A stretch of DNA of 45,048 bases, taken from assembly GCA_036337435.1 (NCBI GenBank), contig JAYZEG010000026.1, positions 1 to 45,048 of the forward strand. The letters are read 5' to 3'. Below are positions 1-26,347 of the stretch, piece after piece; the first letter of the stretch is position 1, and every line of letters begins with the position of its first letter. The translations under genes and the position numbers were made by a program. The notes under the pieces were generated by a model that made no database searches, was not told the origin of the DNA, and saw nothing but the letters and a program-made list of their open reading frames with translations. Origin of the DNA: Myxococcota bacterium. Its GTDB lineage: Bacteria; Myxococcota_A; Bradymonadia; UBA7976; UBA1532.

Positions 1-587
1 AGGTCAGGTCCTCGAGCACTGCACACAGCTTGATAGGGATCCTCACCACACACGACAACACCCACGCTTCGACAAACGCCGGTGTTCAACTCGCAAGGCT
101 GCCCGAGTTCGGGATAGGCCTCGTCGACTTGGCCATCGCAATCATCATCGAGCCCATTGCAAGCCTCTGCCGAGGGCCGCCCTGGCTCTGCATCGCATTC
201 GGCCCGCTGGGGAGTTCGACATGCGATCACGCCCCGCCGCTGACACGCCCCGTGTCCAACGGTACAATCCGAACCAGCGTCATAAGACTCATCAATTAAG
301 CCATCGCAATCATCATCCGCTCCGTTACAGAGCTCCTCCATAAAGTCCGGACAGGTTTCGGAATCGACTTGCCTGGCGTCGGCGGTCCCTTGATGGCCTG
401 AATCGTGATGGCCTGCACCCAGGTCAGCGTGCGGTGTCAGTCCCAGATCTGAACCGACTTCACCCTGTTGGACCTGACAAGCGGAACACAAAAGGGCCAG
501 AAGAATAGACAACCGTGTCTTTGGGGTTTTCGTCGTAGAGCCGTCTGCTTGACGCTGAAAACCAGCAGGCCAAGTCGCGTATGTCAT
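1..587 (-). CDS. Putative lipoprotein with MopE-like 'putative metal-binding' Cys/Asp repeats (partial, runs off the left edge; not in the ORF track)
   Basis: Manual minus-strand translation from ATG 587 (ATGA overlap with the upstream stop) is open to the window edge: MTYATW...RLSILLALLCSAC (lipobox-like), then ELCNGADDDCDGLIDE and EACNGLDDDCDGQVDE repeats separated by C-x-x-G-x-G-x-C-x3-G spacers, as in myxobacterial repeat proteins. Confidence 0.8.
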   Translation of the reverse strand, partial: MTYATWPAGFQRQADGSTTKTPKTRLSILLALLCSACQVQQGEVGSDLGLTPHADLGAGHHDSGHQGTADARQVDSETCPDFMEELCNGADDDCDGLIDESYDAGSDCTVGHGACQRRGVIACRTPQRAECDAEPGRPSAEACNGLDDDCDGQVDEAYPELGQPCELNTGVCRSVGVVVCGEDPYQAVCSARGPD

Positions 588-5037: not shown

Positions 5038-8000
5038 TTATCGCTCTCTGAAAAAGATGAACCATTGACCTGCCCCCACACCGCTTCGCCCACACTTGTG
5101 AGTCGAATCATCTTCACCCCAATCGGTCCCGTCGCTTTGATTTGAGTCCATACAACGGTCGTCAAAGTCCACGGTAAAATCACCGGTATCACCGCAGGAA
5201 TCCTCTCCTTCACAATATCCCGAGTTCCATCGATTATTCCTTGGTAAGGTTTGCCCGGTCAGGTTATTCCTACGGGCGGGCTCCGGCTGTGTATCACCAC
5301 GTCCATTCTGCTCTTCGAAACAACTATTTCGGTCGGCACTCGCCCCAGACCATTCGCGATACCAATTCACATTGTAAAAACTGAGGTCAACTGTCATTCG
5401 ATCACCCGGCAGGCCAATGAAGTCCCGACAAACGAACCGGACGTCCGCATTTCCACCAAAACCACGCATGTCCCGCCAAACGCCGCTCATATTTCCTGGC
5501 GGTGCAATCGTCGCCAGATTCGAATGGTAATTTTGTCGACTGTCATTTACTGGGTCCCTGGTGCTCGAAACCAGTGTCCAACCACCACCATCGACGGCCA
5601 TATCACAAAAAACCGCGCGACGCGTATTTGTCCCCGGGGGCACCAAATTATAGGTTCCCGTTACACGACAGCCATCGTTATAAGCCGCTTTGCAACTCCG
5701 ATAATTTCCTTGGCATTCCTCGCCTGGAATTCCCGGTGACCCGTCATCTCCACCATTACGAACACAAATCACACGTCCGTTGTTATCAATGCCTTGAACC
5801 ACCTCGTCATCATCGCAAGATTGATTTCTCCGTACCACTTGTCTGCATGCTGTTGTCCCGTTGGCCGTCACTTGTACCAATGCTTGACCTTCACCGCACG
5901 TCCGCGCCGGTAAACTCGTCAACCCTTGACGGTCGCGCTCACAAACCAGAGCCCCATTGGCATTGATTCCTTTAGCGAAGAATCCATTCTGACACGTTTG
6001 GTTGGCGGACGTGAGCTGTCGGCACCGTGTGGCCCCATTTGCATCCAAACGATACAAAGCCTGGCCTGCACCACAATTGCGGGCTGGCAAACTCGTCAAC
6101 CCTTGGCGATCTCGTTCGCAAACCAAGGCACCGTTCTGGTTAATCCCTCTGGCGAAGAAGCCAGCATCGCAACTCTGATTCGACTTCGTCAACTGTCGAC
6201 ACGCCGTGGTCCCATCGGCATTAAGACGGTAGAGGGCCTGGCCTGAACCACAATTCCTCGCTGGCAGACTGGTCAAACCTGTTGCGTCGGCAACACAAGT
6301 AAGCGCCCCAGAGCTGGAGATCCTGCGGACGACCTGTCCATCTGGACATTCTCTCGTGCCGCTGCGAAGAGTCCGACATGCCGTGGTCCCATCGGCATTG
6401 ATTCGGTACAAAGCCTGTCCCGCTGGACATGTCCGAGCAGGCACAGCTGTCAACCCCCGCTGGTCGGCGGCGCAGACGATGCTTCCACTCGAATTAATTG
6501 TGACAATGAATTCACCATCGGGACACGACGTCCTACCCTTTCGGACAGTTCCACAGTTGGCACTGCCGTCGGCATTGATTCCAGTGACAACCTGGCTGGC
6601 AGGGCAGGTCGTTACAGGTAGGCTCGACAGTCCTTGTCTGTCTCGTTCGCAAACCAAGGCTCCATCTGCATTGATCCCACGGGCAAAGAAACCAGCATCA
6701 CAACTTTGATTGGCACGAGCCAACCTTCGGCAAGCGGTCGTGCCGTCTGCATTCAACCGATATAGGGCCTGCCCGGCACCACAGTTTCGCGCGGGGAGCG
6801 ACGATAGGCCTTGACGATCGGGCGCACACGTGAGTGCTCCGCTGGTATCGATACCAGTCGCAACTTCGCCGTCCGGACACGCACGCTGTCCTGAATGTAA
6901 GCGGCGGCATGCCGTGCTCCCGTCAGCATTGATTCGGAACAAAGCCTGTCCAGCTCCACAGGTTCGGGCTGGTAATTCAATCTGCCCTTGATCATTCTGA
7001 TCAGCCGCACATTGGACACTGCCATCCGCATTGATTCGGATAATCTTTTCATTGGCACCACAACTCTGATCACCTGTCCGCACGACCGAACAGACCGCAC
7101 TGCCATTGGGGTTGATGCCCGAGACCACCTGGCCTGCGGGACAACGGGTTCTCGGCAAGCTGGTCAACCCCTGCTGGTCGCGAACACAAATCAGCGCGCC
7201 TTCATCGTTGATCCCGCGGGCAACAAAGCCGTCATCACAGCCTTGATCGACCGACGTAATGCGACGACAAGCCGTCGTGCCGTCTGCGCCGATTTGATAC
7301 AAAGCCTGTCCAGCCCCGCACGTGCGTGCAGGCAAGGCGGTCAAACCCTGACGATCGACAACGCAATCCAACGCACCATTGGCTCTGACACCTGTGGCAA
7401 CTTGCCCCACGGGACACGCTCTGGCACCCGAATGGAGCGTTCGACAGGCCGTATTGCCCTCAGCATCGATTCTGAATAACGCCTGGTTGGCTCCGCAAGT
7501 CCGTGCTGGAATGCTCACTAGGCCCTGTGCATCAGCCTGACAGACGAGAGACCCGTCAGCATTCACGCCCGTCGCAACCTGGCCGTCTGGACACGCTGCC
7601 TGACCCGATCTGAGCCGGCGGCACGCAGTGGTTCCGTCTGCGTTAATTCTAAACAAGGCTTGACCAGCCCCGCAGGTTCTCGCAGGTAAGGCCGTCAGCC
7701 CGGCATTATCAGCCACACAAGTGAGCTGGCCATTGGCACTGATCCCGGTGGCGACCTGGCCATCAGGGCATGCCGACTGGCCTCCGTGGAGTTGCCGACA
7801 TGCGGTCTCGCCATTGGCTCCGATCCGGAACAAAGCCTGGTTTGCACCACATTCCCGTGCGGGCAACTGAGTCAGGCCTTGGCCATCGGCAGCACAGTCC
7901 AATTGACCATTGGCACGGATGCCAGTCGCGACCTGCCCTGCCGGGCAAGCGCGGACACCAGCGTGGACAACACGACATTCGGTATTGCCACTTTCATCGA

Positions 8001-10104
8001 TGCGAAAAAGAGCTTGGTTTGCACCACATGTTCGATTAGGCAAGCTCGTCAGACCCTGCTGGTCAGCCGCGCAGACCAGGTCGCCATCTGCTCCAATCCC
8101 TGTTGCAACTTGACCCTCTGGGCAGGCACGCTGGCCCGAGTGCAAGACACGACATTCCGAACGGCCATTGGCCCGAATGCGGAACAACGCCTGACCCTCA
8201 CCACAAGTATTCGCAGGTAAAGATGCCAACCCTGTCGCATCAGCACGGCACAGCACACTGCCGTCGTCTGCGAGCCCAGCCACAACGGCCCCGTCGGCAC
8301 ATGCCTGTTGCCCAGCTCTTGGACGCCCACAAACGCTTGTCCCATCCGCTCGTAAGGCGACCAATGCTTGGCCAGGACCACAGGTATTGGCTGGAATCTC
8401 AAGCTCATCAGGTCCGGCATCGACACAGATGACACTCCCATTGGCATTGTAGCCTCGAACGACCTGTCCATCCGCACATTCGCGGTCGCCGGCCCTTGGA
8501 CGCCCACAGACTGTCGTCCCGTCGGCACGTATCGCCGTGATCGCCTGACCCGGCCCACATGTATTGACCGGCACAGACGTGATACCTGTGTCATCTTGCT
8601 CACAGACTGGGGAACCATCCGCCGCAAACCCGCGAAGTGCGCTACCCGGGGCACAGGTCGCGTTGCGACAGATCGCCTGACCCGCGTCACTGATGCCGAC
8701 CATGACTTGATTTGCCGCGCAAGCGAGCGGCCGCATGACCAACAGACGGCCTTGACCATCAAAGACTTGGACGTCACCAACCCAAATTCCGAGACCACCG
8801 GCACTTAATCGACCATTTGCATCAATGTTTCCGTCGGATGCAATGGATCCCGACGACGCGATGTTGCCCCTCGCCTCGATAGACCCCGTTCGCATCGTCC
8901 CGGTAAAGGCACCCTGTTGGCCGATGCTCATCGTCCCGTTCAAGGTGATGTCTCCAGACAGACTAGACTCTCCCGAAATCGTCAAGTTGGTCGCCGCAGT
9001 TGGCCCTTGCAGATTGGTTATCCGAGCGTTGGTCATCACAGCTGTCGTCAGCGTCGCCAATGGCGCCGTGAGACCCCCGACCAAGTTTGTCGCACCTTGG
9101 ACATCAAATGCACCACTCACGCTCAAGCTATCGCGAACGAAGGTCGGATCTTCCAGGCTGATCCCTTCGCCATCGTTGAGCAACCGAAGTAGACCATCAC
9201 TGTTGCCATTATCCATTGGGGCCACAAAGATCTGTGCGCCGGAGCCGGCCCAGCTAATGCCTTCACCGACACCCGGATCATTGAACTGCAGGTTGTTTGC
9301 GCCGACCAGGTTGGTGTTTGTCATTTGGATGCCGGTTCGGAACTGACCGACGATGCGCAATGCGCCTTCATTCAGGACCAGGTCGCCACCATCCAACTGT
9401 AAGCGGCCGTTTTTTGGAGCGTCGCGGTCGTTACGCACATAGGGCAATCGATTAGGGTCATTCTCAAGGACGGCGAGCACCCGCGCGGCGACCACCTCGG
9501 GATCGGCGTTCTGACCGTCGCCGCCGGCTGGTCCTTGGGGTCCTCGCTCTCCCTGAATGCCTTGTGCGCCCTGCGCACCTTGAGGCCCGCGCACGCCAGG
9601 ATCCCCGGGCGGACCGGCAGGGCCGCGTAGGCCTGTTGGGTTGCCGACCCAAGCCCCATTCTGATCGATCACAACGTCGCCACCGATGCTAATGGAATTT
9701 GGTGTAATGTCACCTGTCACGTTATCGGCCAGGCTGGCCCGAAAAGCGACTGGAACCTTGAGCAGCTGGATTCTCGGCTGTAAGGGCTCACCACCGTCGA
9801 TGATTATCTCGAGATACAAGACGTCGGAGAAAAGTGCGGGATCAAGAGCCTGTTCAGAGCCGATCGCGATGGCGTAATAGCCTCCGATAAAGGCGACCTC
9901 TGGATGAGTTTCAGTGTAGACCGCAACACCGCCTTCTAAGTCACGAAACAGCTTGACTCGAACTTCAAAGTTCCCGTCCACAGGACGCCCTTGTGCATCT
10001 TTGACAAGACCTTCTTGCATCATCTGGTTCGGAAAAGCCCACGCCGCCCCAACGCAACCTAAAAGACACGCGATACTGAATATGACCGTCTTAAGAGTCT
10101 TCAC
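5038..10104 (-). CDS. Secreted fibre-like adhesin: N-terminal fibre domain, collagen segment, beta-rich segment, 34 Cys-paired repeats, C-terminal fibrinogen-like domain
   Basis: GTG start with GGAGGT RBS; signal peptide ending AWA; N-domain ending KVPVAFRA; 14 Gly-X-Y triplets; C-x16-C repeats; C-terminal YRSCKAAY...GTYNL...VFCDMAVDGGGWTLV, the N-terminal signature of fibrinogen-related domains. Confidence 0.85.
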   Translation of the reverse strand: MKTLKTVIFSIACLLGCVGAAWAFPNQMMQEGLVKDAQGRPVDGNFEVRVKLFRDLEGGVAVYTETHPEVAFIGGYYAIAIGSEQALDPALFSDVLYLEIIIDGGEPLQPRIQLLKVPVAFRASLADNVTGDITPNSISIGGDVVIDQNGAWVGNPTGLRGPAGPPGDPGVRGPQGAQGAQGIQGERGPQGPAGGDGQNADPEVVAARVLAVLENDPNRLPYVRNDRDAPKNGRLQLDGGDLVLNEGALRIVGQFRTGIQMTNTNLVGANNLQFNDPGVGEGISWAGSGAQIFVAPMDNGNSDGLLRLLNDGEGISLEDPTFVRDSLSVSGAFDVQGATNLVGGLTAPLATLTTAVMTNARITNLQGPTAATNLTISGESSLSGDITLNGTMSIGQQGAFTGTMRTGSIEARGNIASSGSIASDGNIDANGRLSAGGLGIWVGDVQVFDGQGRLLVMRPLACAANQVMVGISDAGQAICRNATCAPGSALRGFAADGSPVCEQDDTGITSVPVNTCGPGQAITAIRADGTTVCGRPRAGDRECADGQVVRGYNANGSVICVDAGPDELEIPANTCGPGQALVALRADGTSVCGRPRAGQQACADGAVVAGLADDGSVLCRADATGLASLPANTCGEGQALFRIRANGRSECRVLHSGQRACPEGQVATGIGADGDLVCAADQQGLTSLPNRTCGANQALFRIDESGNTECRVVHAGVRACPAGQVATGIRANGQLDCAADGQGLTQLPARECGANQALFRIGANGETACRQLHGGQSACPDGQVATGISANGQLTCVADNAGLTALPARTCGAGQALFRINADGTTACRRLRSGQAACPDGQVATGVNADGSLVCQADAQGLVSIPARTCGANQALFRIDAEGNTACRTLHSGARACPVGQVATGVRANGALDCVVDRQGLTALPARTCGAGQALYQIGADGTTACRRITSVDQGCDDGFVARGINDEGALICVRDQQGLTSLPRTRCPAGQVVSGINPNGSAVCSVVRTGDQSCGANEKIIRINADGSVQCAADQNDQGQIELPARTCGAGQALFRINADGSTACRRLHSGQRACPDGEVATGIDTSGALTCAPDRQGLSSLPARNCGAGQALYRLNADGTTACRRLARANQSCDAGFFARGINADGALVCERDRQGLSSLPVTTCPASQVVTGINADGSANCGTVRKGRTSCPDGEFIVTINSSGSIVCAADQRGLTAVPARTCPAGQALYRINADGTTACRTLRSGTRECPDGQVVRRISSSGALTCVADATGLTSLPARNCGSGQALYRLNADGTTACRQLTKSNQSCDAGFFARGINQNGALVCERDRQGLTSLPARNCGAGQALYRLDANGATRCRQLTSANQTCQNGFFAKGINANGALVCERDRQGLTSLPARTCGEGQALVQVTANGTTACRQVVRRNQSCDDDEVVQGIDNNGRVICVRNGGDDGSPGIPGEECQGNYRSCKAAYNDGCRVTGTYNLVPPGTNTRRAVFCDMAVDGGGWTLVSSTRDPVNDSRQNYHSNLATIAPPGNMSGVWRDMRGFGGNADVRFVCRDFIGLPGDRMTVDLSFYNVNWYREWSGASADRNSCFEEQNGRGDTQPEPARRNNLTGQTLPRNNRWNSGYCEGEDSCGDTGDFTVDFDDRCMDSNQSDGTDWGEDDSTHKCGRSGVGAGQWFIFFRER
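5764..8721 (-). repeat. Intragenic tandem repeat: 34 C-x16-C units, mostly as a 59-aa (177-bp) two-unit period
   Basis: Alternating units such as GLTSLPARTCGAGQALFRINADGTTAC and RRLHSGQRACPDGQVATGINADGALVC. 16 full pairs plus 2 leading units, counted by hand. Confidence 0.9.
9508..9633 (-). repeat. Collagen-like (Gly-X-Y)14 segment
   Basis: GLR GPA GPP GDP GVR GPQ GAQ GAQ GIQ GER GPQ GPA GGD GQN. Confidence 0.9.
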
Positions 10105-10107
10105 CGT

Positions 10108-13100
10108 TTAACCTCCAACCGGAATGTTGCAAGCGACACCTTGCTCCCCATCATGGGTTTCTTGACCAGGATTTGCTACTTCCTGACAATTGTCGTCTAC
10201 GTTTAGGATACCATCTCCGTCAAAATCATCTAAACACGCATCCTCATTTCCTTGATCAGGATTGGCCGTGTAGGGGCAAATATCCACGCCATTCGCAATC
10301 CCATCCCCATCGAAATCGGCTTGGTCAAGAGCATTACAATCCTCACCGTTGCCATTGGGCCATTTGCAATCGTCCAGATGTTGCGGGATCCCGTCACCGT
10401 CTTCGTCGGCGAAGAAGCCCTGGCACGCATCACCCACATTGTTGTCATCGACATCTGTCTGGTCTGCGTTTGGGACATCCGGACAGTTGTCCAGATCATC
10501 CACGATGGTGTCACCATCTCGGTCATCGGCTTCACAGGCATCGCCGAGCCCGTTGTCATCGCTATCATATTGAAACGCGTTGCGGACCAGGATGCAGTTA
10601 TCGCAAACGTCGCCGACCCCGTCGCCATCGGTGTCGGCGATATCGGGACTGGCAACACCGGGGCAATTATCTTCGCGGTTATCAATGCCATCGCCATCGA
10701 CATCACCGGCAGCCGGTGCGGCAATCGCACACGCAAGCCCGAGACCTGGGCTGGCCTCAGCCTGATCGGGATTCGCTAGTTCGGGACAATTATCTTGGTC
10801 ATCGGATACGCCATCACCATCTTGATCGTCTAGACAGGCGTCTTCGTTCTGATCGGCATTCGATACCAGCGGACATGTATCATCACCATTGGCCACACCA
10901 TCACCGTCCAAATCTCCGTCCTCAAGTTCGTCGCAAGAGCGTGGGTTTTGATCTTGCGGATAGGGGCAGTCATCCCGATAGTTGGGCATGCCGTCACCAT
11001 CGTCGTCGCGGTAAAACGCCTGACAGAGATTACCTGTTCCATCCCCATCAGCATCGACCTGGTTCACATTAGAGACATTCGGGCAGTTGTCTTGCTCGTC
11101 AGCGATTGTGTCTCCATCAGCGTCTTCGATTTCACACGCATCACCAATGCCATCCTGATCGGTGTCACGCTGACCTGTGTTGGGCACCAATCGGCAATTA
11201 TCACATTCATCACCAATCCCGTCTGCATCTTGGTCCAAGACGATTGGGGTGCTAAAGCCAGGGCAATTGTCCTCGGCATTTTGAACCCCGTCCCCATCAT
11301 CATCTCCAGGTCCCGGCACCGCAACAACACATGCCCGTCCAAGGCCTGGTGCAATCTCTTCTTGCCCTGGATCCGCAACCCCAGGGCAGATATCGGCCTC
11401 ATTTTCAATGCCGTCTGCGTCTGTGTCCGCCATACATGGCTCATCATCCCGTTGTTGCGGATTGGCTGTGTAGGGGCATTTGTCGTCTAAATTCATGACC
11501 CCGTCTTGATCGAAGTCATCTCCATCAAGGGCACCGCAAATCTGGCCTCCGGCATTGGGCCAGACACAGTCGTCTAGATGGTCTGGAATGCCATCACCGT
11601 CTCGATCCGAGAAGTAGGCCTGACAGAGATCGCCAACACCATCGCCATCAGCATCGACCTGGTTCGGATTGGCCACGTTCGGACAGTTGTCGTCGGGCAG
11701 GAGAATGCCGTCTTCATCGTCGTCCAAATCACAGGCATCACCGAGTCCGTCCCCATCCGTATCCAATTGGTCAACATTCCCAACCTCGGTGCAGTTGTCA
11801 CACAAATCTCCAAGGCCATCTAAGTCAGTATCGGTCTGGTCATTCGATGCAAGGTTCGGACAGTTGTCATCCGTATCGAGAATCCCGTCGCCGTCCGCAT
11901 CCAAATTATTGTCGACCTCGTCGCACGCATCGCCAATGCCGTCTTGGTCACCGTCACTCTGGTCCGCATTGAACGTATTGGGACAGTTGTCGTCCTCATC
12001 TGCCGTTCCATCATCATCGGTGTCTGGACGCAGGTCGGTACACGCATCACCGACACCGTCGTCATCCAAATCGAGTTGGTCTGGATTGGCACGCTCCGGA
12101 CAATTGTCGCAGGCATCTCCAAGCCCATCGAGATCCGTATCCGATTGGTCTTGGTTGAAGACATCCGGACAAGAGTCAAAATCATTGGCAACCCCGTCAC
12201 CATCACTGTCGACCCGGTTGTCGATCAAATCACAAACGTCTCCGATGTCATCGCCATCTGCATCAGCTTGGTCCAAATTCGCAACGTTGACACAGTTGTC
12301 TTCGTCATCGGGAACGCCATCGTCATCGGTATCAATGCCAACACCAGTACACGCGTCTCCTTGTCCATCCCCGTTGGAGTCAAGCTGGTCTTCATTGGCA
12401 TGGTCTGGGCAATTGTCACAAAGGTTCCCAAGGCCATCCAAGTCATTGTCACTTTGGTCGTTGCCGGCGACATCAGGACAGTTATCCACCTCGTTTCGGA
12501 TTCCGTCACCGTCGCGGTCCAGTAGATTATTGATGCCATCACACGCATCTCCAATCCCATCGCCATCCGCATCGCCCTGCCCTGCATTCGGCACGGCTGG
12601 ACAGTTGTCATCCCCATTCGGTATCCCATCTTCGTCATCGTCCAGATTGATCGGCTCGCAAGCATCCCCGGTTCCATTGTCATCGGCATCCGCCTGCTCG
12701 ACGTTAGGCACCTCAGGGCAGTTATCACATGCGTCACCGAGGCCGTCATCGTCAATGTCGACTTGGTCGGCATTCGCGACATCTGAACAGTTATCGTCTG
12801 GGGACAGCACCCCATCATTATCTGAATCGAGGCGACCATCAAAATTGTCGCAGGCGTCGCCGATGCCGTCGTCATCGGAATCGGCCTGATCTGCATTGGC
12901 ACGATTCGGACAGTTATCCCGATTGTCCCCAATCCCGTCTTCATCCGCATCGTCGACATTCGCTTCACAGTCGTTGAGGTTGTCCTGATTCGGATTAGCG
13001 ACAGCCGGGCAGTTATCGCAGGCGTCCCCAACGCCGTCCTCGTCTGCGTCGGCTTGATTGCCCGTCGCAAGGTCGGGGCAATTATCCGCCTCGTTCAATA

Positions 13101-16100
13101 TGCCATCACCATCTCTGTCTGCATCATCAACAGCGTCGCACGCATCACCAACACCGTCTCCATCGGAATCGACCTGTGCTGCATTTGCCAGGTCTGGACA
13201 ATTATCAACATCGTCGAAAATACCGTCGTTGTCAGTGTCTTGCCCCGCGACGCCTTCACACGCATCGCCCGTTCCGTTTAAGTCGCCATCAGCCTGGTCA
13301 GCATTGGCTCTGTCCGGACAGTTGTCACAGACGTCACCCACTCCATCTAAATCGATATCGCTTTGGTCATTGGAGGCAAAATCAGGACAATTATCGACGC
13401 CGTTTAAGATCCCATCGCCATCGGTATCGGCACGGTTATCAACGAAGTCACACGCGTTACCAAACCCGTCGCCATCATCATCGGCCTGGTCTACATTGGC
13501 GTTGTTGGGGCAGTTGTCGACGGGATCTGGAATCCCATCAAAGTCCGAATCAACATCACCGGCTTCGCAGGCGTCGCCCACCTCATCACCGTCAGCATCG
13601 GCCTGGTCTTGATTGGCAATGAGAACACAATTGTCACAGGCATCTCCCACGCCGTCTAAGTCTTGATCGCTCTGGTCATTGATCGCAATCTCGGGGCAAT
13701 TATCCGACCCATCCGGAATCCCATCGCCATCTCTGTCTCCAGAATTATCCGTTGGGTCGCAGGCATCGCCCCTGCCATCCTGATCTCGATCGGCCTGAGC
13801 CGCATTGGGCGTTCTGGGGCAATTATCATCCAGGTCTGAAACGCCATCCAAGTCACGGTCCCCCACGGCCGCTTCACAGTCATCTAAATTGTCTTGGTTC
13901 GGGTTTGCGACCAATGGGCAATTATCACACTCATCGCCCACTCCATCTTCATCGGTATCGGTTAAATTCCCTGTGGCGAGGTCCGGACAATTATCCTCGT
14001 CGTTTAAAATCCCATCACCATCGACATCAAGCGCATTTTGATTATCGCAGGCATCGCCGAGGCCATCCTGGTCTGCGTCCTCCTGTGCAGGGTTGAATTC
14101 ATCAGGACAATTATCCGCATCATTAAAAACCCCATCCCCATCGGTATCCGCACCCGCAGCGCCTTCGCAGGCATTACCGACGCCGTTGATGTCATCATCC
14201 TCTTGGTTTGGGTTGGCTCTGAGTGGACAATTATCACACAGATCACCGACGCCATCGAGATCGCCATCTGACTGGTCATTACTCGCGAGTTCCGGGCAAT
14301 TGTCTGCCTCATTGGGGATACCATCCCCGTCGCCATCCCGTTGATTGTCGACGGGGTCGCAGGCATCGCCGACGCCATCGCCGTCGCCATCCTCTTGCTG
14401 TCCATTGGGCGTGTTGACGCAATTATCAATCGCATCCGCGACACCGTCTTGGTCGGCATCATCGGGATTGTCAACGCATGCGTCACCGACACCATCTCCA
14501 TCCGTGTCAAGTTGGTCTAAATTGGCCACGTCGCGACAATTGTCACAAGCGTCACCGACCCCATCCAAGTCGGCATCGCTTTGATCATTCGCGGATAGGT
14601 CTGGGCAATTGTCCACAGCGTCCAAAACACCGTCCCCATCTCGATCAATTCGATTGTCGACCGGGTCACACGCGTCTCCGACACCGTCCCCATCACCGTC
14701 CACCTGGCCTTCATTGGCAACGACGGGGCAATTGTCTTCATCATCGGCTAAACCATCTCGGTCTGTGTCCACAGCCGGTTGCTCAAGACAGGCGTCCCCA
14801 CGACCATCTCCATCAGCATCCCCTTGGTCAGGATTAAATACGTCGGGGCAATTATCGCAGTGGTTGCCAACGCCATCATTATCAAAATCAGATTGGTCAG
14901 CGGGTCCATCGTTGGGGCAGTTGTCCACGTCATTTAGGACTCCGTCAGCATCAAAGTCTATGTCGTTCAATGGGTCGCAAACATCCCCGATTCCGTCGCC
15001 ATCGCCATCAGCTTGGTTCCCATTTCCGACCTCAGGGCAGTTATCGTCCCCATCAGCGATACCATCGCCGTCGGTGTCCAAACCATTGTCGCCCTGGCAG
15101 GCATCGCCAATCCCGTCTTCATCGGCATCAGCCTGATCGGCATTGGGATCTTGGGGACAGTTATCACAGACGTTGCCAAGCCCATCTAAATCAAAGTCAG
15201 ACTGGTCTCGCGACGCTGTATCCGGACAATTATCGTTCTCATTGATAATCCCGTCACCATCACGGTCGAGCTCATTAATATCATCGCATGCGTCGCCTAT
15301 TCCGTCGCCATCAGCATCAAGCTGGTCTGCGTTGGGCACCTCACGGCAGTTATCATCAGGGTCACCGACGCCGTCATCATCTCGATCCGGGACAAGGACC
15401 GCCTCACATGCATCACCAATCAGGTCACCATCGGCATCGGCCTGATCGGGATTGGCAACGAACGGACAATTGTCACAGCGGTCTCCTAGGCCATCAAGAT
15501 CGCTGTCGCTCTGGTCGCGAGTATTGACATCGGGGCAATTGTCAACGGCATCCAGGATGCCATCGCCATCGCGGTCGTTCTCATTTGGATCGTCACACGC
15601 GTCTCCGACACCATCACCGTCTTCGTCTGCCTGATCCGGATTAAAAGCCTCGGGGCAATTGTCATCCCCATCAGCGATTCCATCGGCATCTTGGTCTACG
15701 ATGACATCTGCGTCACAGGCATCGCCCACCCCATCCATATCGGAATCAAGCTGCTCGGGATTGGCGACGTCGACGCAATTGTCACAGCCATTGCCGACGC
15801 CGTCTAAATCAAAATCGGATATATCGGCCAGTGCCAGTCCAGGACAATTGTCGATGTCATTAGGTACACCATCGCCGTCGTCATCGAGGACAACATCGCC
15901 CTCTTCGCACTGGTCACCAACACCATCGCCATTCTCGTCCGCTTGTCCGGGATTAAAAACATCGGGACAATTATCGACTTCATCGGGCCGGCCATCTCGG
16001 TCGGAATCAATCACCTGCCCACCGTCACAGGCGTCCCCAACACCGTCGCCATCTTCGTCCTCTTGGATCGGATTAAAGACACCTGGACAATTGTCACACG

Positions 16101-17439
16101 GATTACCAATCCCATCTAAATCAGCGTCGGTGAGGTCTCGAACAGCGAGGTCGGGGCAATTGTCGCGAGCATCGCTGATCCCGTCACCGTCTCGGTCATT
16201 ATCTTCTGGATTGTCACACAGGTCTCCGAGTCCATCTCGGTCTGAATCAAGCTGGTTTGGATTGGCAATATCAGGACAGTTGTCATCGGCATCGGAAATC
16301 CCGTCTGCATCTGAATCCTGCTCATCGGCCCCTTCACACGCATCGCCAGTGCCGTCGCCATCCGCATCCGCTTGGTCAGGATTTTCAACGTCAATACAGT
16401 TGTCGCAGGGGTCACCTACCCCATCCAAGTCCTGGTCGGAAATGTCTAATGAGGCGAGGTCAGGGCAGTTGTCAGAGCCGTCGACAAGGCCGTCGCCATC
16501 ACGGTCGCCGTCAACAATAGAACAGGCATCACCACGCCCGTCCGCATTTAGATCGGATTGATCGGGATTAGGAACATCGGGACAATTATCATCATCGTCA
16601 ATGACCCCATCGTTGTCACGGTCACCCGCCACAGCCCCTTCGCATGCATCGCCCTGGCCATTCCCGTTGAAGTCCTCCTGACCAGGATTGGGTTCATTTG
16701 GACAGTTATCACAGGCATCCCCCAAGCCGTCTAGGTCCGTATCTGCTTGATCCTCATTGGCCACATCCAAACAATTATCAACATCTTCTGGCCACCCATC
16801 TTCGTCGCTGTCTAGCCCGACCGGGTCTGGGTCACAGATGTCACCCAGGCCGTCTTCATCAGTATCTTGTTGGTCTGCGTTCGCCGTCGCAGGACAATTA
16901 TCCTGTTCATCGATGATACCGTCCCCATCTCGGTCGGGCGGATCGCATGCGTCTCCGGCACCATCGCCGTCACTGTCCACTTGTTGCCGATTTGGATCAT
17001 CAGGGCAATTGTCCTCGTCATCTGGAATACCGTCATTGTCGACATCGGTGACAACGATGGGGTCACAGGCATCGCCCTGGCCATCCCCATCTGAGTCGAC
17101 TTGATCCGCATTGGCCTCTTCCGGGCAATTGTCAATCTCATTCGGCACTCCGTCATTGTCGATGTCCGTGTCACCCACATCAGGGACAGGTTCGACGACG
17201 CCCAGATCACCGACCGGCTCGACAACGCCACCGTCAGCCTCCACAATTTGCCCAAGATCCGGGTCTGGTCTCGGCTCTCCAAAATCCAGGAGAGGATCCG
17301 GCGTTACCGAGCCATCTTCCATCTGCATCGGAGCTGGCTCGGCTGGACCACCACTGCCGTCATCGCCGCCACATGCCAGTAAGCCAAACGCAACGAACGC
17401 GCTCAAAACACGTGTCACCAGATTGCATCCCGTCATCAT
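10108..17439 (-). CDS. Giant lipoprotein made of thrombospondin type-3 (Ca-binding) repeats
   Basis: Lipobox GLLAC-GG; ~69 DxDxDG...D[NDSKIT]C...NxxQxDxDxDGxGDAC units; no other domain visible. Start is ATG 17439 or 17436 after GTGAGGG. Confidence 0.9.
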   Translation of the reverse strand: MMTGCNLVTRVLSAFVAFGLLACGGDDGSGGPAEPAPMQMEDGSVTPDPLLDFGEPRPDPDLGQIVEADGGVVEPVGDLGVVEPVPDVGDTDIDNDGVPNEIDNCPEEANADQVDSDGDGQGDACDPIVVTDVDNDGIPDDEDNCPDDPNRQQVDSDGDGAGDACDPPDRDGDGIIDEQDNCPATANADQQDTDEDGLGDICDPDPVGLDSDEDGWPEDVDNCLDVANEDQADTDLDGLGDACDNCPNEPNPGQEDFNGNGQGDACEGAVAGDRDNDGVIDDDDNCPDVPNPDQSDLNADGRGDACSIVDGDRDGDGLVDGSDNCPDLASLDISDQDLDGVGDPCDNCIDVENPDQADADGDGTGDACEGADEQDSDADGISDADDNCPDIANPNQLDSDRDGLGDLCDNPEDNDRDGDGISDARDNCPDLAVRDLTDADLDGIGNPCDNCPGVFNPIQEDEDGDGVGDACDGGQVIDSDRDGRPDEVDNCPDVFNPGQADENGDGVGDQCEEGDVVLDDDGDGVPNDIDNCPGLALADISDFDLDGVGNGCDNCVDVANPEQLDSDMDGVGDACDADVIVDQDADGIADGDDNCPEAFNPDQADEDGDGVGDACDDPNENDRDGDGILDAVDNCPDVNTRDQSDSDLDGLGDRCDNCPFVANPDQADADGDLIGDACEAVLVPDRDDDGVGDPDDNCREVPNADQLDADGDGIGDACDDINELDRDGDGIINENDNCPDTASRDQSDFDLDGLGNVCDNCPQDPNADQADADEDGIGDACQGDNGLDTDGDGIADGDDNCPEVGNGNQADGDGDGIGDVCDPLNDIDFDADGVLNDVDNCPNDGPADQSDFDNDGVGNHCDNCPDVFNPDQGDADGDGRGDACLEQPAVDTDRDGLADDEDNCPVVANEGQVDGDGDGVGDACDPVDNRIDRDGDGVLDAVDNCPDLSANDQSDADLDGVGDACDNCRDVANLDQLDTDGDGVGDACVDNPDDADQDGVADAIDNCVNTPNGQQEDGDGDGVGDACDPVDNQRDGDGDGIPNEADNCPELASNDQSDGDLDGVGDLCDNCPLRANPNQEDDDINGVGNACEGAAGADTDGDGVFNDADNCPDEFNPAQEDADQDGLGDACDNQNALDVDGDGILNDEDNCPDLATGNLTDTDEDGVGDECDNCPLVANPNQDNLDDCEAAVGDRDLDGVSDLDDNCPRTPNAAQADRDQDGRGDACDPTDNSGDRDGDGIPDGSDNCPEIAINDQSDQDLDGVGDACDNCVLIANQDQADADGDEVGDACEAGDVDSDFDGIPDPVDNCPNNANVDQADDDGDGFGNACDFVDNRADTDGDGILNGVDNCPDFASNDQSDIDLDGVGDVCDNCPDRANADQADGDLNGTGDACEGVAGQDTDNDGIFDDVDNCPDLANAAQVDSDGDGVGDACDAVDDADRDGDGILNEADNCPDLATGNQADADEDGVGDACDNCPAVANPNQDNLNDCEANVDDADEDGIGDNRDNCPNRANADQADSDDDGIGDACDNFDGRLDSDNDGVLSPDDNCSDVANADQVDIDDDGLGDACDNCPEVPNVEQADADDNGTGDACEPINLDDDEDGIPNGDDNCPAVPNAGQGDADGDGIGDACDGINNLLDRDGDGIRNEVDNCPDVAGNDQSDNDLDGLGNLCDNCPDHANEDQLDSNGDGQGDACTGVGIDTDDDGVPDDEDNCVNVANLDQADADGDDIGDVCDLIDNRVDSDGDGVANDFDSCPDVFNQDQSDTDLDGLGDACDNCPERANPDQLDLDDDGVGDACTDLRPDTDDDGTADEDDNCPNTFNADQSDGDQDGIGDACDEVDNNLDADGDGILDTDDNCPNLASNDQTDTDLDGLGDLCDNCTEVGNVDQLDTDGDGLGDACDLDDDEDGILLPDDNCPNVANPNQVDADGDGVGDLCQAYFSDRDGDGIPDHLDDCVWPNAGGQICGALDGDDFDQDGVMNLDDKCPYTANPQQRDDEPCMADTDADGIENEADICPGVADPGQEEIAPGLGRACVVAVPGPGDDDGDGVQNAEDNCPGFSTPIVLDQDADGIGDECDNCRLVPNTGQRDTDQDGIGDACEIEDADGDTIADEQDNCPNVSNVNQVDADGDGTGNLCQAFYRDDDGDGMPNYRDDCPYPQDQNPRSCDELEDGDLDGDGVANGDDTCPLVSNADQNEDACLDDQDGDGVSDDQDNCPELANPDQAEASPGLGLACAIAAPAAGDVDGDGIDNREDNCPGVASPDIADTDGDGVGDVCDNCILVRNAFQYDSDDNGLGDACEADDRDGDTIVDDLDNCPDVPNADQTDVDDNNVGDACQGFFADEDGDGIPQHLDDCKWPNGNGEDCNALDQADFDGDGIANGVDICPYTANPDQGNEDACLDDFDGDGILNVDDNCQEVANPGQETHDGEQGVACNIPVGG
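10129..17172 (-). repeat. Thrombospondin type-3 repeat array with higher-order periodicity
   Basis: About 69 units by manual count: 17 consecutive three-unit super-repeats marked by CDNC, then six-unit super-repeats with an exact 600-bp period (Gln codons at 11622, 11022, 10422). Confidence 0.88.
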
Positions 17440-18067: not shown

Positions 18068-18210
18068 GGACGAATGTGGTCGGCAACGCCGTCCCCCTCC
18101 CGTTCCACCTCACCCAAGACGCGCATTTTTCAAGAAATCAAGTTTACACTGTCAACCCTGACCTATTCCTGTTAGACAACAACTACATTGGCGTACATGG
18201 CAGTGATAGT

Positions 18211-21200
18211 ATGACTGGTCAGACTTTGACTTACACGCGCGGTGCAGGCTTGAGATGGAGTTTGTTTTCCATCTTCGCAGTCTCCGGCTTCGCCGGCCTT
18301 ATTTATGAAGCGATTTGGGGACGCTACCTAAAGCTTTTCCTGGGGCATTCGGCATACGCGCAAACCTTCGTTATCGCAATCTTTATGGGCGGCATGGCCC
18401 TTGGCTCCTGGCTGGCTGCCCGCTACTCTCATCGGGCAAAAAGTCTGCTGAGGGGCTATGCAATTACCGAAGTTGCCATCGCGTGCTTCGCGTTCGTCTT
18501 CCAGCCCCTGTTCGAGATACTGACGGCATGGGCCTATGATACGGCGATACCAGGACTGGGCCACCCAGTTGCCGTCAGCGTTTTCAAGCAATGCTTATCG
18601 ATGGCAATGATTTTGCCGCCGGCGGTCCTCATGGGGATGACATTCCCCCTAATGAGTGGTGGCATCATTCGCTTATACCCTCGCATCTCAGGCTCATCGC
18701 TGGCCATGCTCTACTTTACAAACAGTATCGGCGCAGCTTTGGGGGTTTTTCTCACCGGCTTTGTCCTCATTGGTTGGATCGGCTTGCCCGGAACAACATT
18801 GCTCGCGGGCAGCATTAACTTATTGGTCGGGTTAACGGTCTGGCTGTTGGCTAAAAAAGTCGACGAACCACAGCCAGCAACGGCTAGGACTGAGGCCATT
18901 GCTGTCTCTGGGCTCCACTCCGCGGCGAGCCCAAAGCTTCTTTTCTGGATTGCAGGTTTGACGGGGTTTGCTTCGTTTCTTTATGAGATCGGCTGGATCA
19001 GAATGCTCAGCATGGTCCTCGGCAGCTCCAGCCACGCATTCGAAATCATGCTCGGCACATTCATCGCTGGCCTTGCATTGGGTGGACTCTGGGTTAAAGG
19101 GCGGATTGATCGGCTCGACGACCCAACCGCATTTCTCGCGACGATGCAGTGGGTCATGGGTGCCTTGGCGATACTCACGTTATATTTATATAACCAATGC
19201 TTTGATCTCATGGCGGGGCTGATGAGCGGCCTGACTCGCACGGAGGCTGGATACACATTATTCAATATCGGAAGCCACTTATTGGCGGTGGTCATTATGC
19301 TGCCCGCCGCATTCTGTGCTGGCACGACGCTTCCCCTGATCACATTCGCCCTGCTGCGTCGAGGATACGGCGAAAAGAGCATCGGCCAGGTCTATGCTTG
19401 CAACACCGTGGGCGCGATTTTAGGCGTCTTTACGGCAACGCATCTCGCGATGCCAATCTTCGGCCTCAAGGGTTTGGTCATTTTTGGGGCACTCGTAGAT
19501 ATTGCCTTAGCTATCGCCATCTTTTTTGCCATCGGTCGACGTCGACTCATGGTCGGGGCACTGTGCGCTGGAGGCCTGCTCATCACCACCACCGCTATCT
19601 CGGTCCAATTTGATCCGCTGAGGATGGCGTCCGGCGTATACCGAGTCGCTCGAATCATGTCGACCGATAGCTATGAGTCGCTCTATCACGCAGATGGAAA
19701 AACATCGACTGTTGACGTTATTCGGGGCGGCGATGGTCGATTGATTCTAATCACAAATGGAAAGCCAGATGCATCCGTCAACCCAAAGACCGATGGCCCA
19801 CCGACAAGCGACGAGGGAACACAAGCGTTTCTGGCATCTGTGCCACTGGCCTTGCATCCTGACGCAAAAAAGGCCGCTGTGATCGGGATCGGCTGCGGCA
19901 TGACCACCAGTGTCTTGCTCGGGCAACCAACGCTAGAACAAGTCGACACAGTCGAAATAGAACCCAAAATGGTTGATGGTGCTGCGTTTTTCAAGCCCAT
20001 GAGCAGTCCCCTTTTCGACGACCCGAGAAGCCGCATCGTTATCGATGACGCACGGACGTACTTCTCGTCGACAGGGGCCCGATACGATATCATTGTATCG
20101 GAGCCCTCAAATCCATGGGTCAGCGGTGTTTCGTCTCTGTTCTCGGAGGAGTTCTACCAGCGCGTTTCACAGCACTTAAATGAGGATGGCCTACTCGCCC
20201 AGTGGGTACAATTGTACGAGTTGACGCCCGAATTGATTGGCTCCGTACTCACCGCAGTGCATAAGACATTTCCACATGTTGCTCTGTTTGCAACAGACGA
20301 CAGTAATATCGTTATCGTTGCCTCTCGTACAAAACCCATTGGCCCTTTGCAACAGACGGTGTTTGAAGCCTCATCGCTGGCATCCCGGATGGGTCGACAC
20401 GAAGTGAAGAGCCCCCGCACCTTCGAGGTTTATCGGGTGGGCGACTTGCAGACTCTCGGCCCCCTGTTTGAGAGCTACGATGCCCCCTCTAATTCCGATT
20501 ACTTTCCCTATTTAGATACCCATGCCACAAAACAACGCTTCCTCAGGTCGTCAGCTCAGGACTTGCTTCGACTTCGAACAACTGTCGTTCCGATATTGGA
20601 CATTCTATCCCCCACGCCGCGTTTTGACTTCGGTTGGAATACGCAGAAACTGCCCACTCATCGTCCCTCTAGCAACGCCCTTTACCCGCCGTTGAAAAGT
20701 ACGTTTGGTGCCGTTGCGATCTCGAGGTTGGTGATCAATGAAAACGCCGAAGGGCAGAAATGGATCCGGCCTGCTGCCAGAAAAGCCATCCTCGACTTAT
20801 CTAAACAGTTATTTAAGTGCACGCCAGCAAATGACCAAGGATTGAGCATTCGAAAGGCCGTTTTTGAGATTGGTCTTGCGACGAATCCATATCTCGATGC
20901 GCAATCGGCGAGCCAGCTTTGGGACAAGATAATGACGGGTCAGTGCGTCGACAAGCTCGATCCGATCTCGCGGCAATGGCTTGAAACAATGGCAAGTATC
21001 GGACGGCGAGATGCGGCCGCGATACTTGAGACCGCGCCTGGGCTGCTTGCGAGTGCCGAACCCAAGAGTGGAGTTACAGAGTTGGTCTTACTCGAAGCCA
21101 TTATGGCCGCTTACGTAAAACAGGGACATGGTCCAAAGGCTTTGGAGCTCTGGCAACGCCATGCAGACCGCCTGGGTGCTACGAAATCACTCAAACTCCA

Positions 21201-21243
21201 CCATCGGCTTTTACTGGCTCACGCTCGACTGCGCACGAACTGA
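18211..21243 (+). CDS. Fused multi-TM membrane domain / spermidine-synthase-like SAM-dependent protein
   Basis: Duplicated TM block (SGFAGLIYE..W.RYLKLFLG; TGFASFLYEIGWIRMLSMVLG), then VIGIGCGMT, VDTVEIEP, DDAR, YDIIVSEPSNPW. ATG 18211 is preferred over the track start at 18076. Confidence 0.85.
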   Translation: MTGQTLTYTRGAGLRWSLFSIFAVSGFAGLIYEAIWGRYLKLFLGHSAYAQTFVIAIFMGGMALGSWLAARYSHRAKSLLRGYAITEVAIACFAFVFQPLFEILTAWAYDTAIPGLGHPVAVSVFKQCLSMAMILPPAVLMGMTFPLMSGGIIRLYPRISGSSLAMLYFTNSIGAALGVFLTGFVLIGWIGLPGTTLLAGSINLLVGLTVWLLAKKVDEPQPATARTEAIAVSGLHSAASPKLLFWIAGLTGFASFLYEIGWIRMLSMVLGSSSHAFEIMLGTFIAGLALGGLWVKGRIDRLDDPTAFLATMQWVMGALAILTLYLYNQCFDLMAGLMSGLTRTEAGYTLFNIGSHLLAVVIMLPAAFCAGTTLPLITFALLRRGYGEKSIGQVYACNTVGAILGVFTATHLAMPIFGLKGLVIFGALVDIALAIAIFFAIGRRRLMVGALCAGGLLITTTAISVQFDPLRMASGVYRVARIMSTDSYESLYHADGKTSTVDVIRGGDGRLILITNGKPDASVNPKTDGPPTSDEGTQAFLASVPLALHPDAKKAAVIGIGCGMTTSVLLGQPTLEQVDTVEIEPKMVDGAAFFKPMSSPLFDDPRSRIVIDDARTYFSSTGARYDIIVSEPSNPWVSGVSSLFSEEFYQRVSQHLNEDGLLAQWVQLYELTPELIGSVLTAVHKTFPHVALFATDDSNIVIVASRTKPIGPLQQTVFEASSLASRMGRHEVKSPRTFEVYRVGDLQTLGPLFESYDAPSNSDYFPYLDTHATKQRFLRSSAQDLLRLRTTVVPILDILSPTPRFDFGWNTQKLPTHRPSSNALYPPLKSTFGAVAISRLVINENAEGQKWIRPAARKAILDLSKQLFKCTPANDQGLSIRKAVFEIGLATNPYLDAQSASQLWDKIMTGQCVDKLDPISRQWLETMASIGRRDAAAILETAPGLLASAEPKSGVTELVLLEAIMAAYVKQGHGPKALELWQRHADRLGATKSLKLHHRLLLAHARLRTN

Positions 21244-25084: not shown

Positions 25085-26347
25085 ATGGGAACCGATTTAT
25101 ACAGAGCCGTACCCCTGGTTTTCGCGCTGCTATGGACACTAGGATGTGACTCAGACACGTCGTCCAGTAATCAAAATCAGACGGACCAGGCCGTTGCCGA
25201 TGCAGACATATCGACAGACTCCGGAGCTATGGACGCCGCCGGTGGCGCAGGTGGCGCTGGAGCCGAAGGCGGTGCCGGTGGGGCTGGCGCCGAAGGCGGT
25301 GCTGGCGGCGCTGGAGCCGAGGGCGGTGCTGGCGGCGCTGGAGCCGAAGGGGGTACGGGCGGTGCTGGAGCTGAAGGCGGTGCTGGCGGTGTAGGTGGTG
25401 TAGGTGGTGCAGGTGGGGCTGGCGGTGCCGGCGGTGCTGGAGGTGATGGCGGTGCTGGCGGTGCTGGCGGTGCAGGTGGTGCCGGCGGCGCTGGTGGTCA
25501 AGAGCCCTGTGTGTGTGATGAGCCTGTCATTCAGGTTTGCGGGGAAGACGGCAACACCTATAACAATGCATGCGAAGCACGATGTGCAGGAACCGCCCCT
25601 GCTTCTGCTGGCCCCTGTGACCCAAATGCCTGCCAGGTCGCAGCGGATTGTGGGGATGCTGGACCGAATTGCGACTATCGGTGCCTCGAAGGGCGTTGCT
25701 CCCCTATTTGTGGTGCCGCGTGCATGAACGAACTCGAATGTGCACCTGGACAAGATTGTATCGAAGGTCGGTGCTCGGGTGCGGCAGATTGCCCAGACCC
25801 CAACATGGCGGGCGTTCGGGTGTTCGGTCGAACCATCGAGGAGTGTGAACGACTCGTCGAAGCAAATGCCATCGTTTGTGAGGACGGCGAAGAATTTTAC
25901 AATGACCCTTGCGGCTGTGGCTGCATCGGTGACGGTGGTGCGCCGATGATGTGCGACTGCCCAGACGTCAACGACCCCGTTTGCGGTCTAAATGGCGTAC
26001 AGTATCAAAACATGTGTGAAGCAAACTGCGTCGGCGTGGATGCAAATCCAGGTGTATGCAACGCATGCGAGGAGCCCGAATGCATGAATGAATGTCCTGC
26101 AAATTCAGTGTTTGCAAGAAACGATCGTGGCTGCGAGGTCTGTGACTGCTGCGAAGTCCCTGTCTGTAATAACGTATGCGACCTCGGAACTCGGCGCAAT
26201 GAGCTTGGCTGCCCCTCATGTGAGTGCTGCCCGAGCTTGGACGCGTGTGATTTAGATTGCGCGGCTGGTTTTGTCACCGATGCAACTGGCTGCGCAATTT
26301 GCGAATGCAGTGACGAGGAAGTCATTATCCGCGAACGCGAGAACTAG
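25085..26347 (+). CDS. Lipoprotein with Gly/Ala linker, two Kazal-type domains and three antistasin-like modules
   Basis: GGAGG RBS; lipobox TLGC-D; Kazal motifs CVCDEPVIQVCGEDGNTYNNACEARC and CDCPDVNDPVCGLNGVQYQNMCEANC; three C-terminal antistasin-like modules ending GC-x2-C-x-C. Confidence 0.8.
   Translation: MGTDLYRAVPLVFALLWTLGCDSDTSSSNQNQTDQAVADADISTDSGAMDAAGGAGGAGAEGGAGGAGAEGGAGGAGAEGGAGGAGAEGGTGGAGAEGGAGGVGGVGGAGGAGGAGGAGGDGGAGGAGGAGGAGGAGGQEPCVCDEPVIQVCGEDGNTYNNACEARCAGTAPASAGPCDPNACQVAADCGDAGPNCDYRCLEGRCSPICGAACMNELECAPGQDCIEGRCSGAADCPDPNMAGVRVFGRTIEECERLVEANAIVCEDGEEFYNDPCGCGCIGDGGAPMMCDCPDVNDPVCGLNGVQYQNMCEANCVGVDANPGVCNACEEPECMNECPANSVFARNDRGCEVCDCCEVPVCNNVCDLGTRRNELGCPSCECCPSLDACDLDCAAGFVTDATGCAICECSDEEVIIREREN
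25241..25498 (+). repeat. Gly/Ala-rich coding repeat: (GG[AT]GGAGAE)5 followed by GGX triplets
   Basis: Five degenerate 27-bp units (e.g. ggcggtgctggcggcgctggagccgaa) followed by 9-bp GGX units. Confidence 0.9.

Follow-up and report, generated by a model that had tools for sequence, protein, structure and literature searches.

How an anchorless, phage-fibre-like adhesin is held on a Gram-negative cell is an open point, and it is raised by two neighbouring genes on a 45,048-nucleotide contig (JAYZEG010000026.1 of assembly GCA_036337435.1; the window, below) from a Myxococcota bacterium. One gene encodes a giant lipoprotein (P0001) made of thrombospondin type 3 (TSP3) repeats and the other a long fibre (P0002) with a lectin-like tip. 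A first-pass annotation of the window had suggested that the lipoprotein tethers, scaffolds or chaperones the fibre, and we infer a role of this kind. The two-gene cassette is real, conserved and lineage-restricted, and it is made of known domain families; what is new here is the pairing itself, a candidate docking module on the lipoprotein and a distinct domain in the fibre, which we call mid. The pair is laid out as follows.

10108..17439, minus strand: gene for the TSP3-repeat lipoprotein P0001, an open reading frame (ORF) of 2443 amino acids with an ATG start (Pfam TSP_3).
5038..10104, minus strand: gene for the fibre P0002, an ORF of 1688 amino acids with a GTG start.
10102..10116, minus strand: junction of the two genes, with GGAGGT at 10116-10111, TAA at 10110-10108, three nucleotides at 10107-10105 and GTG at 10104-10102.

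Two elements carry the linkage. In the fibre it is mid, a neck and β-helix region of which 252 residues were searched for in 113 genomes of the class; in the lipoprotein it is a module of ~100 amino acids that always closes the partner protein in an alignment of partner C-termini (consensus C..FF.D.DGDG.P..D.C.WP...C..L...D.DGDGV.N..D.C...NP.Q...C..D.DGDGV.N..DNC.E..NP.Q.EAEPGLG.AC.VP). Mid was found in 18 of the 113 genomes, all from the family (f1) of the source genome (G000): it is present in 17 of the 27 f1 genomes besides G000 and in none of the 85 genomes of eight other families. Of the 23 near-full-length mid genes, 20 immediately neighbour a TSP3 gene that runs in the same direction. 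The remaining three comprise one at a contig edge with a 124-amino-acid TSP3 fragment upstream, one with merely 255 nt of upstream sequence, and one (G013:C355) with no TSP3 ORF in the 1.1 kb at hand. Searched from the other side, the module profile gave 33 matches at 85 bits or more, in 22 genes from 16 genomes, all of them f1 and all within the 18 mid-positive genomes. All 21 testable module-bearing TSP3 genes (the 22nd sits at a contig start) have a mid-domain fibre gene as their same-strand neighbour; 20 of them lie upstream of it and one (G008:C35) downstream. This exclusive, reciprocal linkage spans 11 genera. A pattern scan of genome contigs gave 14 loci, most of which the other searches had already found. 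The co-occurrence and adjacency that the first-pass annotation had proposed as a check on its idea therefore hold in both directions, and its refuting case, independent occurrence without conserved linkage, is clearly not what is seen. The fibre-first order, with the module-bearing TSP3 gene second, is that of locus L034 (G008:C35); L097 (G008:C28) is likewise listed with this order.

Other fibres and other TSP3 proteins of the same genome served as controls. Three more G000 fibres have the same N-terminal domain (N-domain) and collagen stem as P0002 without mid, and none of them has a TSP3 neighbour. With the module hidden Markov model (HMM), seven further G000 ORFs with TSP3 motifs, and three non-cognate TSP3 genes situated downstream of other fibres, reach at most about 43 bits, compared with 60-141 for true modules. 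What is paired, then, is one particular element with another, and a TSP3 protein or a fibre as such does not suffice. The first-pass annotation had proposed modelling the TSP3 C-terminal repeats with the N-domain of the fibre; the part that co-occurs with TSP3 is instead the neck and β-helix (residues ~200-475), and thousands of collagen-like proteins have the N-domain with no such partner. At loci L036 and L038, a non-cognate TSP3 lipoprotein lies downstream of the fibre. At 70-78 bits the module profile also reached ten genomes of two other families, and the two cases that were inspected are stand-alone TSP3 proteins in which the module-like stretch is internal and which have no fibre beside them. 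In family f6, L095 (G035:C1) and L096 (G041:C1) encode stand-alone TSP3 proteins of 677-725 amino acids with an internal module-like stretch of 57-66 bits; these may be relatives or precursors of the partner family. Literature searches turned up no account of a TSP3-lipoprotein/fibre pair, which is weak evidence of its absence from print.

The two genes are also duplicated together. Whole cassettes stand in tandem in two genomes, with three pairs within about 17 kb in G016:C12 (L040/L085, 388000-418000) and two in G023:C6 (L035). The congeneric genome G001 holds two old, divergent cassettes, and within each both genes share their nearest relative. Distances between fibre mid domains track those between TSP3 modules (Mantel r 0.77, a value that 0 of 5000 permutations reach, in related genomes that are not independent). 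Lengths of the TSP3 protein and the fibre correlate weakly (Spearman 0.65 for 12 pairs, with approximate lengths and related genomes), a figure not used as evidence. In the tandem cassettes of G016 and G023, the bases of the fibres are nearly identical and their tips differ.

These patterns bear on one alternative, that the two genes are co-regulated neighbours whose products make no contact and merely share a promoter and a process, for example surface Ca2+ buffering with adhesion. Such a reading would account for the lack of fusions, as none of 152 fibre-base relatives was found joined to TSP3 motifs or to the module, and for the acidic nature of both partners; the Mantel correlation, for its part, can come from shared descent alone. 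We nevertheless consider it very improbable, because the 21 of 21 pairings are exclusive and reciprocal between two lineage-specific elements, because the pairing has outlasted an inversion of gene order (G008:C35) and repeated tandem duplication, and because generic TSP3 proteins and N-domain fibres occur unpaired in the same genomes.

At the nucleotide level, the junction is as tight as the first-pass annotation had described it. The minus strand reads ...GGT TGG AGG T, then TAA, ACG and GTG, so that the TSP3 gene stops 3 bp before the fibre GTG (10110-10104), and the fibre ribosome-binding site, the Shine-Dalgarno-like hexamer GGAGGT 6 nt ahead of the start, lies within the final Gly-Gly codons of P0001. 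The pair is flanked by a divergent ORF from 17483 (plus strand) and a convergent ORF ending at 5020 (plus strand), which makes the unit exactly two genes. Scans for promoters and terminators stayed at the level of shuffled sequence (10 found against 8.3 expected, and 9 against 11.1). Translational coupling, which had been read from this junction, fits the tight spacing here and does not extend to the family: of 19 cassettes, only five place a Shine-Dalgarno-preceded fibre start within -4 to 4 nt of the TSP3 stop, whereas eight have a gap of 10-29 nt and six one of 56 to about 116 nt. Given this spread, together with the one reversed order, what is conserved is operon linkage rather than coupling, and same-strand gaps of -4 to about 116 nt indicate co-transcription as judged from gene spacing.

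Could the pair be an artefact, with the giant repeat genes or their junction misassembled in a metagenome bin? The source genome is in 95 contigs and is 87% complete, repeat-rich genes are prone to collapse, and aligning metagenome contigs to the window produced short, repeat-derived 'joints'. The sides of these joints, 20-47 letters long, fall within repeats, and the joints were set aside. The junction is bridged, with two differences in each case, by contigs from two runs of different studies: X1, possibly the source sample, at 9866-10305, and X2 at 9841-10266. A congeneric genome carries the same pair at 74% identity, with products of 2439 and ~1686 amino acids. No tandem repeats were found at the DNA level in 5038-17439, so the repeat arrays are old and not assembly stutter, and both frames are open over 7.3 and 5.1 kb. 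With all of this against it, misassembly is hardly credible. The sequence, or one almost identical to it, recurs in the sea: nine marine or seawater metagenome runs from six studies contain at least 0.2 of the sampled words, and contigs of the three runs that were aligned to the window are mostly >99% alike. Two contigs of one metatranscriptome run match the fibre gene (7701-7882 with one difference, and 9081-9320 with three differences), a weak sign that it is expressed. Matches of 27-40 nt between the RNA run X20 and the inside of the TSP3 gene are due to repeats and were left out of account. No RNA contig covers the junction, a negative to which no weight is given.

The lipoprotein divides as follows.

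17371..17439, minus strand: signal peptide with lipobox LLAC and Cys23 (..AFGLLAC followed by GGDD), from the sequence.
11620..17166, minus strand: generic TSP3 Ca-binding repeat array, residues ~92-1940, with periods of 23 and 103 amino acids (Pfam, motif count and module HMM).
11317..11616, minus strand: cassette-specific C-terminal module, copy 1, residues 1942-2041 (module HMM 111 bits; A3 profile 117 bits).
10717..11019, minus strand: cassette-specific module, copy 2, residues 2141-2241 (module HMM 118 bits; A3 profile 120 bits).
10114..10416, minus strand: cassette-specific module, copy 3, at the protein end ..GVACNIPVGG (130 bits; alignment of 19 partner C-termini).

The lipobox pattern [LVI][ASTVI][GAS]C places Cys23 of P0001 as a predicted lipidation site. 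TSP_3 (PF02412) is the sole Pfam family on the protein, with 1211 bits over 61 stretches against a 25-bit cut-off, and there are 107 [DN]x[DN]x[DN]G loops and 140 cysteines; aspartate makes up 26.6% of residues, and 30% are acidic and 2% basic. Searches of Pfam and NCBIfam found no OmpA domain, barrel or sorting domain, and the NCBIfam matches to MtsC and an Omp28-selenoprotein family are repeat matches. The first-pass picture of a lipid-anchored protein without OmpA or sorting domain thus stands, but the protein is not featureless, since the ~100-amino-acid C-terminal module is present in three copies. Among solved chains, the module profile matches COMP (1.5e-37), thrombospondin-2 (9.4e-30) and the bacterial OmpA-family chain 5wtl (3.3e-21), the single bacterial solved chain among the TSP3 matches.

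Across the family, partners carry one module (11 partners), two (four) or three (four, P0001 included), and their generic arrays range from about 5 to about 60 repeats with the module retained. A matching of three modules to a three-fold fibre was dropped, as partners may carry one, two or three. Of 19 partners, 13 have a lipobox in frame, and three more have one a short way upstream in an adjacent frame; two genes are truncated at contig ends and the remaining case is ambiguous. In L039, L035 and L040, all from high-GC bins, the lipoprotein signal peptide is out of frame with the repeats across Gly-rich low-complexity DNA, which could be assembly error or real frameshifting.

A lipoprotein of this design could instead be an assembly or export factor, a Ca2+-loaded chaperone or docking platform in the periplasm or on the inner face of the outer membrane that stays outside the finished appendage. 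Such a factor would aid its cognate fibre in folding, in trimerization or in reaching a secretin. We regard this as unlikely. One-to-one cognate pairing and co-duplication would suit dedicated chaperones as well as anchors, several partners have long Gly-rich linkers after the lipobox, G000 has three secretin genes, and the TSP3 repeats of 5wtl are on a bacterial OmpA-family chain. Known fibre chaperones are small, however, and 2443 amino acids with about 100 Ca sites would be an expensive one; moreover, generic repeat number varies more than five-fold among cassettes that all retain the module, as would be expected of a spacer rather than of a folding cage.

The fibre is composed of the following parts.

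10036..10104, minus strand: Sec signal peptide, predicted to be cleaved between AWA and FP (sequence; conserved mature N-terminus of relatives).
9655..10035, minus strand: N-domain, residues 24-150, a β-sandwich of no named family (model with predicted local distance difference test (pLDDT) scores of 76-93).
9508..9633, minus strand: collagen-like Gly-X-Y run of 14 uninterrupted triplets, residues 158-199 (sequence).
8722..9507, minus strand: neck helix and β-helix (mid), residues 200-461, cassette-specific and found only in f1.
5764..8721, minus strand: stalk of 34 Cys..Cys hairpins of 18 residues, residues 462-1447 (sequence repeat analysis).
5041..5763, minus strand: tip, a fibrinogen/intelectin-like YCDxxxxGGGW domain, residues 1448-1688 (NCBIfam, Pfam, PDB profile and Foldseek).

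The cleavage site was set by comparison with nine relatives, which share A-x-A before it and [FL]P-N/D-x3-Q-E-G after it. The G000 signal peptide also holds a lipobox-like LLGC (10054-10065, minus strand; residues 14-17), absent from the nine compared relatives; if it were used, the G000 fibre would itself be lipidated. The signal of the cassette fibres is of the SPI type. No beta-barrel, S74 domain (Peptidase_S74 at E<=0.01), LPXTG or C-terminal sorting tag was found on the fibre in the Pfam search, and Pfam and NCBIfam gave no beta-barrel translocator or two-partner secretion (TPS) domain on P0001, P0002 or the flanking ORFs. In this respect, the earlier description of the fibre as having a tip but no anchor, autotransporter barrel or S74 chaperone was borne out, in that no such family matches were found.

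The N-domain has no Pfam family and is, by profile search, a very widespread unnamed β-sandwich that opens bacterial collagen-like proteins. Its profile (A1) finds 27,238 representatives at E<=0.001, of which 7,091 reach E<=1e-10; among the 150 listed, most align to profile positions 1-163 only; the C-terminal domains of N-domain-bearing proteins include phage tail collar, LamG, FReD and COLFI. A word-indexed protein search gave three matches only, the ESM Atlas returned 'hypothetical' clusters only, and fold matches are generic (Z about 7). In BFVD, the N-domain matches ~110-amino-acid phage proteins and the N-termini of actinophage minor tail proteins (probability 1.0, TM about 0.5), and tblastn against 50,697 phage records gave no match.

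Part of mid resembles a bactofilin-like β-helix (VIA Z 10.7, root mean square deviation 2.1 over 87 residues to 6ria; model region pLDDT 41-66). As the monomer model of fibre residues 24-475 is confident in the N-domain alone, this fold assignment is tentative. The hairpins of the stalk follow the consensus C-x2-G-Q-x-[VL]-x2-I-x3-G-x3-C, are grouped in double units of roughly 59 amino acids and match no Pfam or NCBIfam model; on sequence grounds this appears to be an undescribed repeat. The tip scores 42 bits with NF040941 (cut-off 30, covering 1-46 of 46) and 31 bits with Fibrinogen_C (PF00147; cut-off 22, profile positions 2-61 of 221 only). Against the Protein Data Bank (PDB), a profile of ten tips (A4) matches XEEL/intelectin first (1.6e-9) and then angiopoietins, FGL1, tenascins, fibrinogen and ficolins, in each case over the first ~65 residues of the tip only. 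Foldseek likewise ranks FReDs first (probability 1.0, TM 0.31-0.42), from a low-confidence model with a mean pLDDT of 52 that is confident only at about residues 10-60. Tips vary between cassettes: some are a single or tandem FReD, some are COLFI-like and some are unnamed. Receptor-binding fibres show this combination of a constant base and changing tips, a point in favour of the tether-and-fibre reading below.

Collagen-like stems with FReD- or COLFI-like ends, next to a protein whose module profile matches the repeats of COMP and thrombospondin-2, also invite the idea of a matrix pair: both products would be released or loosely bound, and the TSP3 protein would cross-link collagen-stemmed lectin fibres in a Ca2+-dependent network, as thrombospondin and COMP do with collagens. 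One to three modules per partner would permit multivalent binding. A lipobox in at least 13 of 19 partners argues for membrane attachment instead, and the collagen run is short and of variable length. In the Pfam search the Collagen model reaches 22.2 bits on the fibre, under its 27.2 cut-off; the run differs in length among fibre relatives, and since paralogues without a TSP3 neighbour have it as well, it cannot be what follows TSP3. We judge a matrix role improbable.

One protein has a lipid anchor and no effector, the other an effector tip and no anchor; with the exclusive pairing of module and mid, this best supports a tether and its fibre: an outer-membrane, lipid-anchored Ca-wire whose terminal module docks a cognate adhesin. 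This is our best reading, held at somewhat less than an even chance. The two gene products would be two halves of one cell-surface appendage. P0001 would leave the cytoplasm through Sec, receive its lipid at Cys23 and reach the outer membrane, where it would present, from the anchor outward, a short acidic linker, a long Ca2+-loaded TSP3 wire (about 100 DxDxDG loops) and the three modules. P0002, also exported by Sec, would trimerize through its collagen-like stem and neck, with the β-helix, the disulfide-stapled hairpin stalk and the lectin tip following. The terminal module or modules of the lipoprotein would dock the neck/β-helix region of the cognate fibre; as the fibre has no anchor of its own, this docking would keep it attached, at a distance from the cell that depends on how long the wire is. 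The variable tip would bind glycans on particles, neighbouring cells or prey. We infer the outer-membrane or surface location, the Ca2+ loading, the trimer, the module-to-β-helix contact and the ligand.

Several observations weigh against this arrangement. Mid has a net charge of -11 (-18 to 0 in 19 relatives) and the TSP3 protein is acidic too, so there is no simple charge complementarity and any contact would be Ca2+-bridged or shape-driven. The absence of fusions given above also means that there is no 'Rosetta stone' support. TSP3 repeats in OmpA-family proteins are periplasmic, and by the precedent of 5wtl the wire could lie in the periplasm. The unpaired N-domain fibres of G000 mean that fibres of this superfamily can be deployed without a TSP3 partner. 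Most partners are about 440-750 amino acids long, with giant size seen only in this genus and in g16, which makes giant size a lineage peculiarity outside the core mechanism. A complex prediction that combined a trimer of fibre residues 199-478 (A2) with the 105 C-terminal residues of P0001 (A3) gave no answer (score 0.00, the partner's own fold being uncertain) and counts neither for nor against the reading. A broader form of the tether-and-fibre reading, which we consider possible though doubtful, is a lineage-specific plug-and-play capture appendage. In it a lipid-anchored Ca wire, whose length (about 0.4 to 2.4 thousand residues) can evolve, would grip a cognate trimeric fibre through a terminal docking module, and the tips, ficolin/intelectin-like or other lectins, would be interchangeable.

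The closest functional analogue, by description, is the MAT (mosaic adhesive trimer) fibre family of Bdellovibrio bacteriovorus. According to the available part of PMC10769870 (Caulton et al. 2024), MAT proteins form a multi-copy family, are secreted and phage-fibre-like, and combine a constant N-terminal base with interchangeable C-terminal tips, as the cassette fibres do; they too have no recognizable anchor, and their surface anchor is left unidentified in that text. P0002 differs in its collagen stem, Cys hairpins and FReD-like tip and in having no S74 domain, the C-terminal autoproteolytic chaperone of one MAT subfamily. It also differs in its dedicated upstream lipoprotein: the words 'lipoprotein' and 'thrombospondin' have 0 occurrences each in the same part of PMC10769870.

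Animal proteins offer other likenesses. Ficolins and intelectins are FReD-type lectins, collagen-stemmed or trimeric, and P0002 resembles them in having a collagen-like stem and a fibrinogen-type YCD....GGGWT globular end in one chain; P0002 is bacterial and predicted to be Sec-exported, its stem and tip are separated by a spacer of about 1250 residues (the β-helix and 34 hairpins), and only the first ~65 residues of the tip align by sequence. P0001 shares the Cys-containing, Ca-binding type 3 repeats of thrombospondin and COMP. In Pfam it has no TSP_C lectin-like domain, EGF repeat or coiled coil, and it is a lipoprotein with 61 stretches, whereas thrombospondins have 13 type 3 repeats; the lectin-like globular end is found on the product of the neighbouring gene.

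Among bacterial proteins, MtsC (NF047638), a cell-cell cohesion MYXO-CTERM protein, is a Myxococcota surface protein with TSP3 repeats. P0001 scores 1512 bits against its cut-off of 350, from 19 stretches at profile positions 66-267 of 428, so these are repeat matches. It ends in ..GEQGVACNIPVGG and the stop (..ACNIPVGG), with no transmembrane helix or Arg-rich tail, and has an N-terminal lipobox instead; the MYXO-CTERM tag, as given in the available part of PMC11980579, is a Cys motif, a transmembrane helix and an Arg-rich tail. OmpA-family proteins with TSP3 repeats (5wtl) are bacterial envelope proteins as P0001 would be, and P0001 differs from them in having no peptidoglycan-binding domain or barrel. 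Likeness to autotransporter and TPS adhesins is at fold level only, the β-helix resembling EtpA and the passengers of Pet and Hbp with Z 6.6-8.3.

Elsewhere in the window, several other ORFs were recorded.

18076-21243, plus strand: a 1055-amino-acid protein with a spermine/spermidine-synthase domain, which also adjoins the cassette in the congeneric G001 (synteny).
25085-26347, plus strand: a 420-amino-acid ORF with Antistasin and Kazal-type protease-inhibitor domains, unusual for bacteria.
29989-32154, plus strand: a multihaem cytochrome c3/c7 protein with TPR repeats.
34788-39859, plus strand: two large neighbouring proteins with weak Glucodextran_B matches.
3-587, minus strand: a protein with a MopE-type metal-binding motif.

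The host organisms are known as metagenome bins only, which limits direct testing. The cassette nonetheless provides a fibre family with an obligate, co-evolving lipoprotein neighbour, and its candidate docking elements, the ~100-amino-acid module and the ~270-amino-acid neck/β-helix, are both small enough for expression and testing. It shows TSP3 repeats as a length-variable element in bacteria. Its bacterial fibre has a fibrinogen/intelectin-like head, which may be relevant to how marine Myxococcota that are predatory or attached to particles recognize glycans. If the broader, plug-and-play reading is true, the lipoprotein would be the first dedicated anchor identified for the phage-fibre-like adhesins of predatory or particle-attached bacteria, and the animal thrombospondin-collagen-ficolin toolkit would have a bacterial counterpart with its parts divided between two genes.

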